Positions 1,987 through 36,297 of a DNA stretch of 64,000 bases are shown in pieces; the first letter of the stretch is position 1, and each line of letters opens with the position of its first letter. The notes under the pieces are model-generated. The model did no database searches. It saw only the letters and a program-made list of their open reading frames with translations, and had not been told where the DNA came from. Made by a program: the position numbers and the translations under genes. Source of the stretch: Candidatus Melainabacteria bacterium 17Bon1m (GTDB lineage: Bacteria; Cyanobacteriota; Vampirovibrionia; Obscuribacterales; Obscuribacteraceae); NCBI GenBank assembly GCA_032128875.1, contig JAVLKG010000002.1, positions 640,001 through 704,000 of the forward strand. Reading direction: 5' to 3'.

Positions 1987-4900
1987 TTAGCGGTACAACC
2001 ACACTCTCAAGAGTGAGAGCAGTCTGTCCGTATCAACCGGCTTGGCAATGTAGTCAGAAGCTCCGGAGTCCAGGCACTTCTCGCGGTCTCCTTTCATCGC
2101 TTTTGCAGTAAGAGCAATGATTGGCAAGGTCTTGAACTTCGGCATCTCGCGAATTGCCATAGTCGTCTCGTAGCCGTCCATGCCTGGGAGCATGATGTCC
2201 ATCAAAACAACTGATATGTCTGGCGTATTGTCGAGAATTTCCAGTGCTTCTTTGCCGCTTTCAGCATAGAGCACGTTCATCTCTTGCCGTTCGAGAATGC
2301 TGGTCAATGCGAAGATATTGCGTACGTCGTCATCGACGATGAGCACTTTTCTTCCAACAAGAACAGGATCAGTTTGATGCACCTCCTCGAGCATCTTACG
2401 TTTGTACTCAGGCAGATTGGCTTCGACTCTGTGCAAGAAGAGTGAAGTTTCATCGAGCAGTCTTTCAGGCGATTGAACGTCTTTTACGACCACTGTGTTG
2501 GTTAACTTCTTAATTTCCATTTCTTGCTTTGGTGTCAGTTCCTGCCCGGTGTAAATGACGACGGGCATGTCAGGCATTTGAAGTTCTTTCTGCACTTTGC
2601 GGATGAATTCAATACCTGCCATGTCAGCTAGTTCCAATCCGAGAACAACACAATCAAAGGCGCCGTCCTTCAGCTTGTTGACTGCTTCTTCACCAGTATC
2701 TGCCGTTGCAATTTCAACATCATCGCCCTGAATCAATTCGACAAGAGCATCACGGTGTTCGTGATTGTTGTCGACGATAAGCAGAGATTTACGCTCGCGC
2801 TCGATAAATCCTCTTATGTTGCTGAGCGCATCGACGATGCTGTCCTTGCTGACTGGTTTTTCAAGATAGCCTATGGCACCTTGTCTCAAACCACGCCAGC
2901 GTTGCGAATCAACTGAGATAACGTGCACTGGAATGTGTCTGGTGTTGGGATCGTGCTTGATTCTATCCAGCACTGTCCAACCATCCATATCAGGCAAGTT
3001 GAGGTCGAGAGTGATTGCCTCAGGCTTGTATTTCTTGGCTAATGCCAGAGCGGTTTCACCATCCTGAGCAACAATGCCCTTGAACTCTTTCTCGTGAACA
3101 AGATCGACCATCAGGCTGGCGAAATTCGGATCATCTTCAACAATGAGCACGGTGCGATCGCCTGCTTCGATTGCGTCGCGATCGTCATTGACTGTGAGCT
3201 CATGACGCGGCATTGTTTGCGTCATCGCTTCATAGAGAATCTCCGGTTCGCGATCTTTGGTTGCGTTTTGACCTTGAGTCTTTTGCGCATAGACCTTTGC
3301 TGCTTCCGGCAGGTAGGTCTTAGGAATGTACAGAGTGAATACGCTGCCTTCGTCAGGAGTGCTTATGACGCGAATTTCACCTCCGAGCAATGTGGCGATT
3401 TCGCGGCTGATTGCGAGCCCTAAGCCTGTGCCGCCGAACTTACGGCTAGTTGTGCCGTCAGCCTGGTGGAAGGCTTCGAAGATGATACCTTGCTTGTCGA
3501 ATGGGATGCCGATACCTGTGTCTGAAACAGTGAATGCAATCACTGAATCAGCCATATTCAGCACTTCCATGTCAGGCGACCAACCGGATTCGACGGTTTT
3601 GATATTGAGTGCCACGCTTCCCTTTTCCGTGAACTTGATGGCGTTGGAAAGGAGGTTCTTCAATACCTGGTGCAGACGCTTCCAGTCTGTGTAGACAAGT
3701 TTTGGAGCGTTCTCGTCGACGGCGACTGAGAATTCCAATTTCTTGTCTTCGGCAATTTGGCGGAATCCTCTGTCCATGTCGTTGCGAATGTCGGACACAA
3801 AGATGTCGGACAGTTCGACGGTCATGGTTCCAGATTCAATCTTAGACAGATCGAGGATGTCGCTGATCAATCCCAACAAATCTGTTCCGGATGAATAGAT
3901 TGTGTTGGCGAAATCAATTTGTTTCTCCGTCAAGTTGCCTTCTACGTTTTCGGCAAGTAGCTTGGAGAGAATCAAGAGTGAATTGAGCGGTGTGCGCAGT
4001 TCGTGCGACATGTTTGCAAGGAACTCGGACTTGTACTTGGAAGTAAGAGCAAGCTGTTTTGCTTTTTCTTCCAGTGAGAGTCGAGCTTGTTCGATTTCTC
4101 TGTTCTTGCGTTCGACCTCTTTGTTCTGCATTTGCAGCAATCGAGCTTTTTCTTGCAATTCTTCGTTTGTTTGTTGCAGCTCTTCTTGTTGCTCTGTGAG
4201 CAGGTTTTCTGATTCCTTGAGGTTCTTCGCTTGTTGTTCCAATCGTTGGTTGGTTTCTGTAAGCTCTTGTTGCTGTGCTTGCAGTTCTTGCGCCAATGAC
4301 TGGGACTGAGCCAGAAGGTTTTCTGTTCTGGAGTTGGCTTCGATGGTGTTCAGCACGATACCGATTGATTCGGTGAGCTGATCCAAGAACGCCAAGTGGA
4401 TGTCGCTGAATCGTTGGAAAGATGCCAGCTCGATTACCGCTCGTACTTCACCTTCAAACAGTACCGGCAGAACAACGATGTTTAGCGGTGTTCCTTCGCC
4501 CAGTCCGGAGTTGATTCTGACGTAATCATTTGGCGCGTCGTGAACAAGAATTCTTTGTTTTTCGATAGCGCACTGGCCGACCAGTCCTTCACGCATTCGG
4601 AATCGATCAGATAGATTCTTTCTTTCTCTGTACGCGTAACTACCGATCAACTTCAGCACTTGTTCATTTTCTTCTTCGTCATCGACTTCGTTGAGGTAGA
4701 ACACACCGTGTTGCGCGGTTACCAGTGGTGCCAACTCAGACAAGATCAAGTTTGACACTGTGAGCAAGTCTCTTTGACCTTGTAGCATTCGAGTGAATTT
4801 CGCCAAGTTGGTCTTGAGCCAGTCTTGTTCCGTGTTCTTCTGTGTCGTGTCCTTCAGGTTCCAGATCATTTCGTTGATGTTGTCTTTCAACGCCGCAACT

Positions 4901-7290
4901 TCGCCTTGCGCTTCTACGGTAATCGATCGGGTCAAGTCACCCTTCGTCACGGCGGTTGCTACTTCTGCGATAGCCCGTACCTGTCCGGTCAAGTTCGCAG
5001 CGAGCTGGTTGACGTTGTCTGTGAGATCCCTCCACGTACCGGCGGCACCAGGCACCCTTGCCTGACCACCGAGTTTTCCTTCAACACCTACTTCCCGGGC
5101 AACTGTAGTTACCTGGTCTGCGAATGTCGCCAGAGTGTCGATCATCTCGTTGATGGTGTCTGACAGAGCCGCGATTTCGCCTTTGGCTTGCAAGGCTAGT
5201 TTTCGTTTCAAGTTGCCGACGGCTACCGCGGTTACAACGCCCGCAATACCCCGCACCTGCTCTGTGAGGTTACCTGCCATGGAGTTTACGTTATCGGTTA
5301 GATCTTTCCAAATACCGCCCACCCCTTGTACGTCCGCTTGTCCTCCGAGTTTTCCTTCGGTTCCTACTTCCCGGGCTACCCGTGTAACTTCTGCCGCGAA
5401 AGACGAGAGCTGGTCAACCATGGTGTTGATTGTGTTTTTCAGCTCTAAGATTTCGCCCTTAACGTCTACAGTAATCTTCTTGGACAAGTCGCCTCGGGCT
5501 ACAGATGTCGTAACGTCTGCGATGTTACGCACCTGAGATGTGAGGTTCGACGCCATGTAATTTACGTTGTCCGTCAAATCCTTCCAGGTGCCGGACACAC
5601 CTTTTACATCCGCCTGACCACCGAGTTTTCCTTCCGTACCTACTTCTCTTGCAACCCGTGTTACTTCTGATGCGAATGATGAGAGCTGGTCAACCATGGT
5701 GTTGATTGTGTTTTTCAACTCCAAGATTTCGCCTTTAACGTCTACAGTGATCTTCTTCGAAAGGTCACCGTTCGCAACCGCAGTCGTTACGTCCGCGATG
5801 TTACGTACTTGCGACGTGAGGTTGGACGCCATGTAATTTACCGAGTCGGTCAAATCTTTCCAGGTACCGGACACACCTTTAACGTCCGCCTGACCACCGA
5901 GTTTTCCTTCCGTACCTACTTCTCTTGCAACCCGTGTTACTTCTGCCGCGAATGATGAGAGCTGGTCCACCATGGTGTTGATGGTGTCTTTCAGCTCCAA
6001 GATTTCGCCTTTTACGTCTACGGTAATCTTCTTCGAAAGGTCACCGTTCGCAACTGCGGTCGTAACGTTCGCGATGTTCCGCACCTGAGCTGTCAGGTTG
6101 CCTGCCATGTAATTTACTGAGTCAGTCAAATCCTTCCAGGTACCGGCGACCCCTTTTACTTTCGCCTGACCGCCGAGTTTTCCTTCCGTACCTACTTCTC
6201 TTGCAACCCGTGTTACTTCGGATGCGAAGGAGGACAGCTGATCCACCATTGTGTTGATTGTGATCTTCAACTCCAAGATTTCGCCTTTAACGTCTACGGT
6301 GATCTTCTTCGAAAGGTCACCGTTGGCAACTGCGGTCGTAACGTTCGCGATGTTCCGCACCTGAGCTGTCAGGTTGCCTGCCATCGAATTTACGTTATCG
6401 GTCAAATCCTTCCAGGTGCCGCTGACGCCTTTTACAATCGCCTGACCGCCTAGCTTTCCTTCAGTACCTACTTCCCGGGCAACCCGTGTTACTTCGGATG
6501 CGAAAGAGGACAGCTGGTCCACCATGGTGTTGATGGTGTTTTTGAGCTCCAAGATTTCGCCCTTTACGTCTACCGTAATTTTCTTGGAGAGGTCGCCGTT
6601 TGCAACGGCGGTTGTTACTTCTGCGATGTTCCGCACCTGTGCTGTCAGGTTACTTGCCATCGAGTTTACTGAGTCAGTCAAGTCTTTCCACGTTCCGCTT
6701 ACGCCTTTGACCTGAGCCTGACCGCCGAGTTTTCCTTCGGTACCTACTTCTCTTGCAACCCGTGTTACTTCTGATGCGAATGACGAAAGCTGGTCAACCA
6801 TTGTGTTGATCGTTTTCGCTGTTCGGAGGAACTCCCCTTTGAGTGGCGCTCCATCGATTTCGAGTGACATGGTTTGGCTGAGGTCGCCTTTTGCTACCGC
6901 CCCGATAACCCGGGCAACTTCTGTCGTGGGCCGCACCATGTCTGATACCAGAAGGTTGACTGAGTCCATGCAATCAGCCCAGCCCCCGGACACATCACCA
7001 AGTGACGCGCGGTGACCGATCTTACCTTCCTTACCAACAACGGTTGAGACTCGCTGTAGCTCGCGCACCATGCGCTCATTCAGCTCCGCCGCGTCGTTGA
7101 AAGCTACCGCTATTTCCCCGGCAATGCCGGTCTGGTCGAGCGGCAATCTAACTGAAAAGTCACCGCGAGACAGCATTCGCAGTGCCTTTAGTAATTGCTT
7201 CGCATCGATCACTTCTTTCTCAAGTGTCGCCGGCGACAATTTCTTGCTGCCGTTCGTGTCTGTGGAAGCACGAGATTTGGTTGTTGGCAT
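1987..7290 (-). CDS. Soluble poly-HAMP hybrid histidine kinase (OsaA / group III Nik1-like): HAMP array, GAF, HisKA, HATPase, 3 REC
   Basis: About 8 tandem 92-aa units ([25 protein letters not shown]), GAF (GLVGQCA), H-box [12 protein letters not shown], three receiver domains, no TM segment. Confidence 0.95.
4860..7060 (-). repeat. 276-nt tandem coding repeats (HAMP array)
   Basis: Near-identical segments recur at 276-nt spacing (e.g. the ttccagg segments near 5580, 5856, 6132, 6408); boundaries approximate. Confidence 0.85.
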
Positions 7291-31363: not shown

Positions 31364-33277
31364 TTACCCGCGCTTATTCTTCGTCTCTTTCTCTGCAAGT
31401 TTTGCAGCTTTGTCGCGAAGCTTGGCAATATTTTGGCGCATCTTCTCTGCTTCCTTAATCGGCTGATTAGGATTGAGAGACATGTAGTTGTGATATTGCT
31501 CAGCGGACTCCATCAACATCGTTGAATTAGCCTTCTGCATTTTCTCCAGCGATCTCGCCAAACCGAGTCGAGCATCTGCAAGCGTCGGATTTGTGCTGAC
31601 TGCATGGCGGTATCTGTCGATTGCACCGTCAAGTTGATTTTTCTTGAAAAGTTCGTCGGCAACTATGACGTCGTCTTTCGATACTTTTCTCAAACGAGCG
31701 ACTTCGTCCAATCCGCGCTGTGCGCGTTCTGGCGCCCCAGATAAAGTGATGGCTTTCTTGTAGGCCGCCTCCGCATTATCGAGGTCTTTATTCAACATCG
31801 CAACGTCGGCTACTGCGAATGCTTGCTTCGGATCGTTTACGCTGTTTACCACCGTCTTCATCATATCGGTTGCTTTTTGAAACTCACCTTGCGCCATTAG
31901 CGCTTCAGCATAGGCAAGCTTCTCGCCATTGTTTTGCGGGTCTCCCATTTTACTGAGGTCAGGTTTTGCACCAGCCAGCGACATCAATTTTGCCTGAGCG
32001 AGGCGCAGCTCGAAATCATCTGGGCTGAGTTTGATAGCTTCATCAAGACTCTTCAATGCAGCCTCATAGTCGTTGGAGGCAAGAAGTGCTCCAACTGCCG
32101 CTTTCTGTGCCTTGATGTAGAGACCCTGGCTTAAACCTTTTACAGCTTGTGGATTATTTGGGCTCATCTGGAGAATGGTTCTAAAACCCTTGATTGCATC
32201 ATCTGCCTTCTCGAGTTTCAAACAAATTTCTGCAATGCGTTGGCGCAAATCGATATCGTAGGGAATCTGCGACAAACCCGAACGCAGGTCGGCGAGCGCC
32301 AATTCGAGATCGCTTCTGCTTTCGCGAATGTCTGCGATTTTGAGGTAAGGCTGTGCATTTTCCGGCTTGATCAAAATTGAGAGTTGATATTCCTTTATTG
32401 CTGCAACCTGATTTCCTTGTTGTGCATAGGCATCACCAAGAGCCATGCGAACCGGCCAACTGTTGGGGAACTGGTAGAGAGAAGTATTCAGTTCTTTAAT
32501 GGCATCGTCGACTTGCCCTTGTTTCAAATAAACAGAACCAAGACCGAAGTGGGCGGTTGAATTGCTTGAGCTAATATTGATAGCGCGTTTGAAGTTTTCT
32601 GCAGCTTCCGCGAGGCTGCCTTGATCGAGTTTAATTGTTCCGAGCGTCGACAAAGCTTGCGAATGTTGTGGGTCAAGACTTACTGCCGTGCGCAATTCTT
32701 GTGCGGCGTCTTCAATGCGCCCTTGTTCTTTATATACTTGCCCGAGCGTGAAGTGTGCTTCTCCGGATGCGGGTGCCAAAGCGGTTGCCCGTCTTGCGTA
32801 GTCTTCAGCCTGACGCAAATAAGAATCGCGGTTGTCTCTGATAGTGCCCGATGAAGATTGCAGGCGGTTCAAAATGACGTTGGCTTTTCCCGCGAACGCC
32901 AATGCATTATTAGGATCCGACTTCAAAACACGGTCGAGCATGTCGTCCGCGCCGTCCAATTTGAATTGTTTTGCAAGCGCTGTGCCCAAACCAACTGTTG
33001 CCGCAAGATCAGCAGGATTGTTGACGAGCAGTTCTCGGAACATTTCCTCCGCCTCTGCATAACGTCCTTGGGACATTAGTTGTTCGGCGGGAATGATGTC
33101 AGACTTGATCTTGCCGGTGAGGATTTGGTTTTGGTTGGGAGGTGGAGTGGTTGATGTGGCAGGCTGGGTTATCCCAGGCAATTGAGCGCCAGCGGTATGA
33201 GGGTAGAAAACGATCAGCCCGGATACTGCTAGAAGTCCGAAAAGGCTCAAACTTCCTGCTTTTCTGATGGCGGTCAT
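31364..33277 (-). CDS. Exported multi-TPR protein
   Basis: Signal peptide followed by many TPR repeats (AHFTLGQVY, AHFGLGSVY, ALGDAY). Confidence 0.9.
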   Translation of the reverse strand: MTAIRKAGSLSLFGLLAVSGLIVFYPHTAGAQLPGITQPATSTTPPPNQNQILTGKIKSDIIPAEQLMSQGRYAEAEEMFRELLVNNPADLAATVGLGTALAKQFKLDGADDMLDRVLKSDPNNALAFAGKANVILNRLQSSSGTIRDNRDSYLRQAEDYARRATALAPASGEAHFTLGQVYKEQGRIEDAAQELRTAVSLDPQHSQALSTLGTIKLDQGSLAEAAENFKRAINISSSNSTAHFGLGSVYLKQGQVDDAIKELNTSLYQFPNSWPVRMALGDAYAQQGNQVAAIKEYQLSILIKPENAQPYLKIADIRESRSDLELALADLRSGLSQIPYDIDLRQRIAEICLKLEKADDAIKGFRTILQMSPNNPQAVKGLSQGLYIKAQKAAVGALLASNDYEAALKSLDEAIKLSPDDFELRLAQAKLMSLAGAKPDLSKMGDPQNNGEKLAYAEALMAQGEFQKATDMMKTVVNSVNDPKQAFAVADVAMLNKDLDNAEAAYKKAITLSGAPERAQRGLDEVARLRKVSKDDVIVADELFKKNQLDGAIDRYRHAVSTNPTLADARLGLARSLEKMQKANSTMLMESAEQYHNYMSLNPNQPIKEAEKMRQNIAKLRDKAAKLAEKETKNKRG

Positions 33278-33467
33278 GCAATTCCTCCTTGCAAAGTCAC
33301 CAAATTCCTTATTTCAGAACGCTTCTTCAAGCGACAGGCTCGGCGTTTGCACGCAGAGCACAAGGCGAAGGTAACAGACCTTCGGTCCTGAAGTATTAGA
33401 AGGAGGGGTTTTACTTCGGATTTGAGGATAAGTCGATACAAGATTCTTAATGAAACCTTGCGACCTA

Positions 33468-33497
33468 TTGACAAATCCCGAAATCTTGCCGCACACT
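33468..33497 (+). promoter_or_regulatory. Candidate sigma70 promoter of the argC leader
   Basis: Perfect TTGACA (33468-73), 18-nt spacer, weak -10 CACACT. Confidence 0.45.
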
Positions 33498-33531
33498 ACA
33501 TAGGTTGATTCATCAGGTGCTCAAGAGACAG

Positions 33532-33588
33532 ATGCAGCTTATGCAAGCCCAACAAGTTATATCCCGACGCCGCCCAGGTCTCTTTTAA
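33532..33588 (+). CDS. Putative arginine leader peptide MQLMQAQQVISRRRPGLF
   Basis: Hand-translated uORF with CGA-CGC-CGC at 33565-73, upstream of a terminator and argC; alternative start ATG 33541. Confidence 0.7.
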   Translation: MQLMQAQQVISRRRPGLF

Positions 33589-33636
33589 GGCCCGGCGCAG
33601 ATATGGCTTAGCTGATTTAGCACCATTTTCGAGTTT

Positions 33637-33666
33637 AGCCCCGGGTCCAAGGACCAGGGGTTTTTT
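33637..33666 (+). terminator. Attenuator terminator upstream of argC
   Basis: agcccc-g-ggtc-caag-gacc-a-gggg followed by T6, about 20 nt before the argC start. Confidence 0.8.
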
Positions 33667-33685
33667 GTTTTAGGGCTTGTTCAAG

Positions 33686-34753
33686 ATGGATACACAGATG
33701 AAGAAGATTGCGGTTGTCGGAGCTACAGGTTACACAGGTCAGGAGTTGATCAGAATTCTGGTTCAGCATCCCAATGTGAAAGTGCACACTGCAGTTTCTT
33801 CCACCAACAGCGGCAAGTCGTATGCGTCGGTTTATCCAGGGCTGTCAAAATTGGCCGATTTCACTTGCAGTGCTGATGACATTGATACGTTGTCTTCGCA
33901 AGTCGATCTGATTTTCCTTGCATTGCCTCATGGACTTGCGGCCAAAATGGTCAGCAAGGATGTGTTAGAGAAATGCGCGATTGTTGATCTCGGAGCTGAT
34001 TTCCGGTTGAAGAATGCCGGAGATTATGATGAATGGTACGAGTTCACTCACCCAAATCCTCAATTGCTCGATTGTTCTGCTTATGGACTGCCAGAGTTGA
34101 ACAGAGAAAAAATCAAATCTGCAAAGTTGATTGCTAATCCTGGTTGCTATGCAACCTGTTCAATTCTCTCATTGGCACCACTACTTAACGCTGGGCTGAT
34201 TGATGAGTCCACAGTCATAGTTGATGCAAAGTCTGGAGTCTCTGGTGCGGGAAGAAGTCTTTCGCTGGGAGTCCACTTCGACGAGTGTAATGAGTCCATC
34301 AAGGCTTACAAACTCGGTAGCCATCGGCACACTCCCGAGATCGAGCAAGCTCTGAATCCTTACGCGAAGAGTTCGCTGGCCATCTCGTTTACGCCACATT
34401 TGGTTCCTATGAACAGAGGAATTCTATGTACTACATATGGATCTTTAAAGAAAAAGATGTCAGATAAAGATCTCTTTGATCTCTATAGTGAATTCTATGA
34501 AGATGAGCAATTCATCAGGATCTTCGATCCGCAATCAGGCGAGTATAAATATCCAGAGACGCGTTGGGTTAAAGGATCTAACTATTGTGATATCGGACTC
34601 AGCGTCGATAAGAGAACCAGCAGAGCGATAGTCGTCGGGGCCCTAGATAATCTCGTGAAAGGCGCAGCAGGACAGGCAGTTCAAAACATGAACATCCACT
34701 TTGGCTGGCAAGAATCTACAGGTTTAACTCACGCTCCAATTTTTCCGGCGTAA
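33686..34753 (+). CDS. argC: N-acetyl-gamma-glutamyl-phosphate reductase
   Basis: VVGATGYTG, ALPHG, DLGADFR, ANPGCY, SGVSGAGR, HRHTPEI, DNLVKGAAGQA. Confidence 0.97.
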   Translation: MDTQMKKIAVVGATGYTGQELIRILVQHPNVKVHTAVSSTNSGKSYASVYPGLSKLADFTCSADDIDTLSSQVDLIFLALPHGLAAKMVSKDVLEKCAIVDLGADFRLKNAGDYDEWYEFTHPNPQLLDCSAYGLPELNREKIKSAKLIANPGCYATCSILSLAPLLNAGLIDESTVIVDAKSGVSGAGRSLSLGVHFDECNESIKAYKLGSHRHTPEIEQALNPYAKSSLAISFTPHLVPMNRGILCTTYGSLKKKMSDKDLFDLYSEFYEDEQFIRIFDPQSGEYKYPETRWVKGSNYCDIGLSVDKRTSRAIVVGALDNLVKGAAGQAVQNMNIHFGWQESTGLTHAPIFPA

Positions 34754-34779
34754 CAAATTTTGCAGATATCCCAGAATTA

Positions 34780-34809
34780 TTGACAGAAAAAATCCACAGC
34801 GTGTATATT
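34780..34809 (+). promoter_or_regulatory. Internal sigma70 promoter for argJ-argB
   Basis: TTGACA (34780-85) - 18 nt - TATATT (34804-09). Confidence 0.65.
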
Positions 34810-34832
34810 TGAATCTCAAGGAAATTTTTGAC

Positions 34833-34922
34833 ATGCAATTCAGCAAATCTCTCAGACACAACCGACGATTCCCCCGACGCCGCGCCAACGCGCTTGGGGA
34901 TTGCTCGCATACGTTGATTTAA
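34833..34922 (+). CDS. Putative arginine leader peptide MQFSKSLRHNRRFPRRRANALGDCSHTLI
   Basis: Hand-translated uORF with 6 Arg codons (AGA, CGA CGA, CGA CGC CGC); AAGGA upstream; followed by a terminator and argJ. Confidence 0.78.
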   Translation: MQFSKSLRHNRRFPRRRANALGDCSHTLI

Positions 34923-34946
34923 TACAACACTGCAAGAGATCTATAT

Positions 34947-34982
34947 TCCCCGAGTGCCCCCATCAAGGACTCGGGGATTTTT
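34947..34982 (+). terminator. Attenuator terminator upstream of argJ
   Basis: 9-bp stem tccccgagt/actcgggga followed by ttttt. Confidence 0.8.
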
Positions 34983-35016
34983 CTATGCATCTGTTTTTTG
35001 TTTGAGGAGATCCGAA

Positions 35017-36297
35017 ATGAATTCATTCACCACCATCATCGATGCGCATGCCTTGGCTGTTCAGGGCAAGGTGGTAGAAGCCCCTTTCAGCGGAAGCGTC
35101 ACCAGCGCAAAAGGCTTTAAGGCAGCCGGTGCTCACATCGGTGTAAAACGCAAAAGAAAAGATCTTGCTTTGATCTATAGCGAAGTTCCAGCAACTGTCG
35201 CCTGCATGTTCACTACCAACGTGATGAAAGCTGCGCCGATTCTGTGGAACCAGAGTGTTGTAGCTAAATCTCAAACAGTTCGTGGCATCGTCATCAACAG
35301 CGGCAACGCCAACTCTTGCACTGGCAAAGAAGGCCTGGAAAACGCAGAGATTATGGCTGCCACTTACGCTGATTGCATTGGTGTGAAGCCTGAGGAAATT
35401 CTTGTTTGCTCCACAGGTGTCATCGGCGTTCAACTTCCCATGGAAATCATCACGAAGGGCATCATCAACACGGCGACGTCCCTAGAGCACTCCAAGCTGG
35501 CTGGACAATTAGCAGCCGAAGCGATTATGACCACAGACACTTATACGAAACAGATCTCCGTAGAGTTCGAAGTCGGCGGGAAGAAGGTAGTACTTGGCGC
35601 GATGGCAAAAGGCAGCGGCATGATTCACCCGAACATGGCGACGATGCTTAGCTTTATCACGACCGACCTGGATATTGCCCCGCACATGCTGGAGAAAGCA
35701 CTGAAAGACAGTGGTGCCGATACCTATAACATGATTTCGGTTGACGGTGATACCAGCACGAATGACATGGTGGCAATCATGGCGAACGGACTGGCCGGCA
35801 ATGAAACTATCGTCAGCGAGGATGCCGGCTACTTCACCTTTTGCGAAGTGTTGAAGCAGGTAAACACACATCTGGCGAAAATCATTGTTCAAGACGGCGA
35901 GGGTGCAACCAAATTCTTGGAAGCCCAAGTGACATCTGTCGGATTGAAAGAAGATGCCAGACTGCTTGCACGTTCCATCGTTTCTTCCAGTCTGGTAAAA
36001 ACAGCGTTCTTCGGAGAGGACGCGAATTGGGGCAGAATCATCTGCGCAATGGGATACAGCGGCGCGAAATTTGATCCGGCTCACGTTTCAATTTCTCTGG
36101 AAAGCGCAGGCGGGATATTAGAACTCTTGAAACATGGCGAGCCGGTCTGCGTCAATGAAATTCTTGCGAAGCAAATTCTTGCCGAGAAGAACATCATCAT
36201 TCATGTGAACATGAATACCGGAATCGAGGAAGCTACCGCGTGGGGTTGCGATCTCAGTTATGACTACGTGCGGATTAATGGCTCTTACAGAACTTAG
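35017..36297 (+). CDS. argJ: Bifunctional-type ornithine acetyltransferase/N-acetylglutamate synthase
   Basis: INSGNANSCTG, STGVIG, IMTTDT, KGSGMIHPNMATML, DGDTSTND, DGEGATK, DANWGR, GCDLSYDYV; AGGAGA RBS. Confidence 0.97.
   Translation: MNSFTTIIDAHALAVQGKVVEAPFSGSVTSAKGFKAAGAHIGVKRKRKDLALIYSEVPATVACMFTTNVMKAAPILWNQSVVAKSQTVRGIVINSGNANSCTGKEGLENAEIMAATYADCIGVKPEEILVCSTGVIGVQLPMEIITKGIINTATSLEHSKLAGQLAAEAIMTTDTYTKQISVEFEVGGKKVVLGAMAKGSGMIHPNMATMLSFITTDLDIAPHMLEKALKDSGADTYNMISVDGDTSTNDMVAIMANGLAGNETIVSEDAGYFTFCEVLKQVNTHLAKIIVQDGEGATKFLEAQVTSVGLKEDARLLARSIVSSSLVKTAFFGEDANWGRIICAMGYSGAKFDPAHVSISLESAGGILELLKHGEPVCVNEILAKQILAEKNIIIHVNMNTGIEEATAWGCDLSYDYVRINGSYRT

Follow-up and report, generated by a model that had tools for sequence, protein, structure and literature searches.

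What is a transcription terminator doing directly upstream of argC, on the same strand as the gene? The question is posed by a stretch of 64,000 nt from the genome of Candidatus Melainabacteria bacterium 17Bon1m (contig JAVLKG010000002.1, positions 640,001 to 704,000), hereafter called the window, in which argC is preceded by a leader containing a short upstream open reading frame (uORF) with a run of arginine codons. The most probable answer, to which we assign a probability of about 0.8, is that the argC leader is a classical ribosome-mediated transcription attenuator sensing Arg-tRNA. Conditional termination by a leader-peptide attenuator had been proposed from the window alone (below, the original prediction), and the analysis supports it: all parts of such a device are present and are retained in 11 of the 11 loci of the same genus that could be compared. 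The attenuator design recurs, diverged in sequence, in five further genera, and both alternative pairings hold across genera. Within the genome, arginine leaders precede three arg operons.

Anatomy and predicted mode of action of the argC leader

The features of the argC leader are listed below; invariance refers to the same-genus loci.

33468..33473, plus strand: -35 hexamer TTGACA, invariant in 11/11 loci
33492..33497, plus strand: weak candidate -10 element CACACT after an 18-nt spacer; alignment columns C53, A54, A56, C57 and T58 are invariant
33515..33520, plus strand: AGGTGC box, a possible weak Shine-Dalgarno sequence 11 nt 5' of the uORF ATG; AGGT is invariant and GC nearly so
33532..33588, plus strand: candidate leader peptide uORF of 18 codons, MQLMQAQQVISRRRPGLF, stop codon TAA; the frame opens with ATG in seven of the 11 loci and with GTG in the other four, in one alignment column
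33554..33573, plus strand: region 1, the 5' arm of the protector hairpin, from the single-sequence fold and the consensus fold of 11 loci
33565..33573, plus strand: regulatory arginine codons CGA CGC CGC, invariant except for one change of CGC to CGA in locus L030
33588..33609, plus strand: region 2, the 3' arm of the protector hairpin, containing the anti-strand GGCCCGG (33589-95), from folds and pairing counts
33609..33633, plus strand: conserved module consisting of TAG, a 4-bp hairpin GCTG-loop-TAGC (33611-21) and then ACCATTTTCGAG, invariant in the genus save for the loop
33639..33666, plus strand: intrinsic terminator with 5' arm 33639-47, loop 33648-51, 3' arm 33652-60 and T6 33661-66
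33686..34753, plus strand: argC, the regulated gene, with ATG at 33686 (TIGR01850, 455.5 bits against a cut-off of 233.6; Pfam semialdehyde dehydrogenase domains)

The hexamer TTGACA, claimed at 33468, was found by direct reading of the sequence at 33468-33473. The claimed uORF 33532-33588 is present as well, with ATG at 33532, TAA at 33586-88 and 18 codons encoding the peptide given above, and the codons CGA CGC CGC stand at 33565-33573 where they had been placed. Both predicted pairings were recovered. Pairing of CGCCG 33568-72 with CGGCG 33593-97 occurs in the minimum-energy fold, in which the protector hairpin gains a further 10-bp helix formed by AAGTTATATC (33554-63) and GATATGGCTT (33600-09). 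Alternatively, the anti-strand GGCCCGG 33589-95 is complementary to CCGGGTC 33641-47 in the 5' arm of the terminator, with seven pairs, one of them G-U.

The GC-rich terminator with T6 that had been described ahead of argC forms a hairpin of -14.2 kcal/mol with one internal G.A mismatch, and its T run ends 19 nt before the argC ATG. This terminator was not called by a consensus promoter and terminator scan, because of its mismatch. The region 33500-33690 as a whole folds with z = -2.93, none of 200 shuffles being equally stable. The neighbouring TPR gene (31364-33277, minus strand) is indeed divergent, and thus the terminator cannot belong to it. The 19 nt between the terminator and argC are too few to accommodate a promoter, so that expression of argC requires read-through. 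Downstream of the leader the gene order is argC, argJ, argB. One lake metatranscriptome yielded two 151-nt contigs from this locus, both inside argC (33932-34238). No Rfam family matched at gathering score within the 64-kb window. At E up to 10, the region 33200-33800 gave four chance-level matches only, none of them a leader family and none a T-box.

The following mode of regulation may be proposed. Transcription would start from a promoter with a perfect -35 hexamer and enter a leader of approximately 160 nt, in which a ribosome would translate the 18-codon uORF. When Arg-tRNA is plentiful, the ribosome would pass CGA-CGC-CGC and reach the stop codon at 33586-88, its footprint masking GGCCCGG; after its release the protector hairpin (33554-73 with 33588-609) would re-form. 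With the anti-strand masked or sequestered, the terminator 33639-66 would fold and the polymerase would halt 19 nt short of argC. Under a shortage of charged Arg-tRNA, the ribosome would stall on the arginine codons and mask region 1, leaving free the anti-strand, which lies about 15 nt downstream. The free anti-strand would capture CCGGGTC 33641-47 once it is made, no terminator would form, and argC would be transcribed, which is the predicted response to arginine. If the uORF is not translated at all, the protector hairpin is expected to act like unhindered translation, causing termination. Judged by its sequence, the leader has every defining feature of leader-peptide attenuators that could be checked.

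Conservation, pairing and folding of related leaders

Comparison of argC leaders across relatives had been named beforehand as a check of the original prediction. In this comparison the leader is retained and the uORF frame is conserved within the genus. The leader is nearly identical in all 11 same-genus loci having sequence 5' of argC; locus L016, which ends inside argC, was left out. The invariant or nearly invariant elements are TTGACA, the CA.ACT box 18 nt further on, the AGGTGC box, the arginine run, the anti-strand and the terminator arms, and the same is true of the hairpin-plus-ACCATTTTCGAG module. The loops of the terminator and of the protector hairpin are variable. The candidate -10 element keeps A at position 2 and T at position 6. 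Indels within the uORF frame are +3, +3 and +9 nt, that is, they preserve the frame, as a translated uORF predicts. In 9 of the 11 loci the uORF extends to a TAG matching window positions 33609-11, within the small hairpin of the module.

The spacing between AGGTGC and the uORF start ranges from 7 to 22 nt inside the genus, and thus the role of this box as a Shine-Dalgarno sequence is uncertain. The AGGTGC motif also occurs 5' of the uORF in the diverged genus considered below. The box at 33515-33520 is complementary to the conserved GCACC at 33620-33624, and the two are paired in one predicted fold; the pairing is broken without compensation in two members of the genus.

The geometry is regular across 12 representative leaders. 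The anti-strand starts 5-16 nt past the arginine run, and in all but one of the 12 the terminator arm follows this run at a distance of 58-62 nt. Pairing of the anti-strand with that arm has a predicted energy of -11 to -21.5 kcal/mol; for 11 leaders, no more than 10 of 200 dinucleotide shuffles reach the same stability.

Leaders from four genera, 21 in all, were aligned and the pairs of each structure counted. In the antiterminator helix 89.5% of cells are paired, compared with 34-50% when the partner is slid along the sequence. For the terminator the figure is 91.9%, and two of its pairs are altered on both sides. The antiterminator pair 35-106 is G-C in 11 sequences and A-U in 9. Alignment column 106 is common to both helices and co-varies with its partner in each of them. 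The small hairpin of the module is paired in 98.8% of cells in the cross-genus alignment, and the module 33609-33633 is still recognisable in genera with ArgC identity down to 61-65%.

The spread of the leader was assessed by searching 104 genomes of the family with ArgC and reading the flanks of all 58 loci having upstream sequence. A uORF with an arginine run, followed by a terminator, was found 5' of argC in 28 of these loci, representing six genera: the genus of the window (g1, 11 leaders), g32 (11), g11 (2), g10 (1), g35 (2) and g45 (1). Every one of the 28 leaders has a run of two to four arginine codons. The leader peptides diverge (e.g. ...TSRRRRDFLENSGPIT and ...TRRRRSNYRSGPGWVLP) and the design is constant; TTGACA also precedes the diverged argC leaders of other genera. 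Such a leader was found in none of nine argC loci from other families of the class.

The influence of the ribosome was considered in a crude folding model, in which the nascent RNA was cut before the 3' arm of the terminator and folded with the ribosome-covered part masked; the readout was the probability of capture of the 5' arm by upstream RNA. Values for locus L067, whose terminator was mis-assigned in the model, were excluded. For the argC leader of the window the capture probability is 0.40 without a ribosome, 0.91 with the ribosome stalled on the arginine codons and 0.40 with the ribosome at the stop codon. The ten other g1 leaders give 0.07-0.85, 0.84-0.93 and 0.24-0.79, respectively, and ten g32 leaders give 0.90, 0.90 and 0.42-0.66. 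In the genus of the window, capture with a stalled ribosome is at least 0.84 in 11 of 11 leaders, and the value at the stop codon is lower than the stalled value in all of them. Capture without a ribosome is clearly below the stalled value in 9 of the 11.

Other arginine leaders of the genome and competing explanations

The original prediction had described the argC leader as a second, independent one. This description is borne out: a distinct leader, equipped with a TTGACA of its own, stands between argC and argJ, and a third precedes argFGH.

34780-34982: argJ-argB leader, filling the 260-nt gap between argC and argJ
34780-85 and 34802-09: promoter of this leader, TTGACA and TG-TATATT
34833-34922: its uORF of 29 codons with five arginine codons (RR..RRR), peptide MQFSKSLRHNRRFPRRRANALGDCSHTLI
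34893-900: its anti-strand CTTGGGGA
34947-82: its terminator
35017: ATG, the likely start of argJ
L047:1059-1268 (G000 contig C1 491686-491895): leader of argF-argG-argH on another contig, with TTGACA, uORF MTFANYTSNNRRTRRVLLNSGPAGLR, anti-strand AACTCGGGG and a terminator

The terminator of the argJ leader would end the argC transcript as well. By scripted criteria, leaders at the argJ position were found in 25 of 36 loci of the family and leaders before argF in 16 of 30, two of the latter being regarded as doubtful. Searched against the genome at E up to 10, a profile of the argC leader returns no match but itself, and thus the three arginine leaders are not recent copies of one another. No leaders were found 5' of the three best argD-like genes.

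A naive scan of the genome for an RRR-containing uORF followed by a terminator gave 115 matches in 2 x 7.55 Mb, and none of the 13 downstream ORFs inspected among them is related to arginine. When the full architecture was required, five arginine matches remained genome-wide, two of them being the leaders of argC and argJ. Owing to its interrupted T run, the argF leader escaped the latter scan.

All 89 codons in the arginine runs of 26 leaders are CGA, CGC or CGT. These three codons account for 67% of arginine codons in long frames, and the genome has two tRNA-Arg(ACG) genes. The tally covers 25 argC leaders and the argJ leader of the window, argF-type leaders and other leaders downstream of argC having been left aside; since the 26 leaders are kin, the codon bias is only a hint.

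Three groups of observations weigh against the attenuator reading. The first concerns expression signals. The consensus scan called no sigma-70-like promoter, a canonical -10 element is lacking, and in the genus alignment no good Shine-Dalgarno sequence has the usual spacing to the start of the uORF. In three public runs declared as RNA-Seq, all from one sample, 32900-35400 is covered by nothing but contigs of 21-38 kb, whose sequence is identical to that of the window; these contigs resemble genomic DNA and are without starts or ends.

The second group concerns conservation. A 1-nt deletion, common to the window and its nearest relative, makes the uORF stop earlier, at TAA 33586-88. Thus the stop codon precedes the anti-strand in these two and follows it in the other nine members of the genus. 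Consensus folding within the genus gives 34 pairs and no compensatory changes; because the leaders of the genus are nearly invariant, there is neither compensatory change nor a synonymous-change signal for translation. In the window itself the antiterminator duplex (-13.1 kcal/mol, matched by 10 of 200 shuffles) is borderline when taken on its own. The pair changes between genera amount to approximately one event between two clades, and so they fit the model and are not statistical proof of it. Finally, the leader is absent before argC in the other 30 of the 58 family loci.

The third group concerns folding. At equilibrium the full-length leader retains the terminator under every mask in 25 of the 26 leaders modelled. 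If the leader is an attenuator, the choice between terminator and antiterminator must therefore be kinetic, made during RNA synthesis, as it is in the classical systems. The argJ leader of the window behaves contrary to expectation, with capture of 0.43 without a ribosome, 0.55 when stalled and 0.66 at the stop codon. The high capture without a ribosome in the diverged genus (0.90) also departs from expectation. The protector hairpin is not predicted in that genus, whose leaders would thus form the antiterminator by default, and only a ribosome at the stop codon lowers capture.

A further complication is the 25-nt module, in which TAG lies in a 4-bp hairpin and is followed by ACCAT(T/A)TCG. 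It might serve as a second input, making the leader a dual-input attenuator, in which a terminating ribosome, a release factor or a trans-acting factor at the module would set the time for which the anti-strand is masked. We advance this extension tentatively and consider it rather unlikely. If it is true, the dual-input leader and its siblings would stand in for ArgR across the whole arginine regulon; ArgR was not found in this genome (7.55 Mb, 93% complete) with TIGR01529 and PF02863.

Another possibility is a factor-dependent attenuator, where a protein or some different trans-acting factor would bind the module 33609-33633 (hairpin plus ACCATTTTCGAG) and select terminator or antiterminator, leaving the arginine uORF a secondary or incidental part. 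Between genera with ArgC proteins of only 61-65% identity no stretch is better conserved than the module, which has no obvious role in the minimal attenuation model; moreover, as ArgR was not found, some other sensor of arginine must exist unless the uORF is that sensor. However, the module cannot be recognised in the two sibling leaders of this genome, those of argJ and argF, though the arginine run, anti-strand and terminator are present there, and the only feature common to all leader types is a run of arginine codons at a fixed distance from the terminator. Besides, the module can be explained as a nested hairpin, which would place anti-strand and terminator arm next to each other and in which the ancestral stop codon lies. 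We consider factor dependence improbable.

The distance from promoter to terminator and the strong fold (z = -2.93) are compatible with a stand-alone small RNA gene of approximately 160 nt, and attenuator RNAs are known to act in trans, as reported for rnTrpL (PMC7968998, 10.1101/606483). Together with a constitutive leaky terminator that merely sets the level of argC, this explanation is less probable again. It leaves unexplained both the arginine uORFs at fixed spacing at three arg operons in several genera and the conserved alternative pairing with the terminator arm, and the space ahead of argC is too short for a separate promoter.

The arginine run could also act through the nascent peptide or the speed of translation rather than through Arg-tRNA, by poly-basic stalling or as a remnant of a twin-arginine-like SRRxFL motif. 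The peptides ...SRRRPGLF and ...SRRRRDFLE... do resemble the twin-arginine motif named in PMC3712460. However, the residues beside the arginine run are set by the structural strands (e.g. NSG from AAC-TCG-GGG), and among the downstream genes checked the elements precede arg genes only, so we rank this explanation slightly below the small RNA or leaky terminator. As for a twin-arginine signal peptide proper, this candidate was rejected: the peptides end at 18-29 residues and contain no hydrophobic stretch.

The 115 naive matches in the genome (short RRR frames followed by hairpins being common) and the borderline duplex of the window might speak for a mere coincidence of short ORF, GC-rich hairpin and T run. 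Such a coincidence is hardly credible given conservation in 28 loci of six genera, two sibling leaders, and five full-architecture matches of which two are at arg genes.

Known systems and further candidate leaders

Leader-peptide attenuation is a textbook case of coupling between transcription and translation, known for His, Trp, Leu, Thr, Phe and Ile/Val, the classical examples being the enterobacterial trpL, hisL, leuL, thrL, pheL and ilvL. Arginine regulons are taught as being controlled by ArgR. ArgR/AhrC is a DNA-binding protein that acts at operators and shuts the arg genes off when arginine is plentiful. The argC leader would serve the same physiological purpose, but it would act in RNA, and no ArgR domain was found in the genome with the two models named above.

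The argC leader shares with the classical leaders a uORF close to the promoter, in which codons for the pathway's own amino acid occur in tandem. It also has the same set of pairings, with a 1:2 protector and a 2:3 antiterminator that shares a strand with the 3:4 intrinsic terminator, and a stop codon so positioned that a non-stalled ribosome would cover region 2. It differs from them in its arginine codons and in its host, a non-photosynthetic (Melainabacteria-type) member of Cyanobacteriota. Further, it has no sequence or structure match to the Rfam families Trp_leader, His_leader, Leu_leader and Thr_leader. Unlike classical systems, the regulon comprises three units that would each be attenuated separately, and one of these begins within the argC-argJ-argB cluster.

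The closest arginine-sensing uORF found in print is orf34 of Salmonella speF (PMC6386406). It reportedly has two arginine codons and acts on a polyamine gene by Rho-dependent termination, unmasking of a ribosome-binding site and RNase G decay. In orf34, and by prediction in the argC leader, consecutive arginine codons in a short uORF couple the progress of the ribosome to arginine and select the mRNA structure. However, the argC leader has an intrinsic terminator and precedes a gene of arginine biosynthesis, not ornithine decarboxylase.

According to the conclusions of a comparative paper of 2005 (PMC1262725), arginine genes are T-box-regulated in Firmicutes and attenuators are described for other amino acids only. 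Like the T-boxes described there, the argC leader would report tRNA-Arg charging ahead of arginine genes by a choice between terminator and antiterminator. T-boxes bind uncharged tRNA directly and need no uORF, whereas the argC leader has no T-box match at E up to 10. A term search of a 2010 survey of premature terminators found no mention of arginine (PMC2965389). Full-text searches, in which subscription journals are thinly covered, brought up no leader-peptide attenuator for the biosynthesis of arginine, which does not prove that none has been described.

If the attenuator reading is correct, arginine joins the attenuated pathways, and classical attenuation extends to the non-photosynthetic sister lineage of Cyanobacteria. 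The leaders would be simple testable switches of approximately 160 nt, forming a three-leader regulon. They would also provide a natural series for the origin and movement of attenuators, comprising the argC, argJ and argF leaders, leaders with and without a protector hairpin, and leaders whose stop codon precedes or follows the anti-strand.

Candidate leaders for other amino acids were observed in addition in the same genome. A uORF with seven consecutive histidine codons and a terminator lie 5' of hisG (TIGR00070, 150.6 bits; L131:188-265, G000 contig C12) and are likely to constitute a histidine leader attenuator. Upstream of a trpE-like gene (TIGR00564, 482 bits, just under the cut-off), a uORF encoding ...SGWWRW... 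is followed by a terminator (L133:105-221, G000 contig C14), and this element is likely a tryptophan leader. A uORF encoding ...DNNNNNDNDNN... with a terminator (L132:1503-1598, minus strand, G000 contig C3) precedes a gene for aspartate--tRNA(Asn) ligase (NF003483, 552.8 bits); this is possibly an Asn/Asp-codon leader of a tRNA synthetase gene. The uORF MFNRSTTTMVMPMP..., with three methionine codons within five, has a strong terminator and an anti-strand (L134:1377-1463, minus strand, G000 contig C12). It is followed by a cystathionine gamma-synthase-like gene (NF005871, 506.5 bits, below the cut-off of 513) and is possibly a methionine leader.

Three near-identical 11-codon frames (L.TVTFRRR..), spaced 276 nt apart, were also observed at 5742-6329 on the minus strand, inside an ORF of 1767 amino acids (1987-7290). 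They point to internal repeats of the encoded protein.
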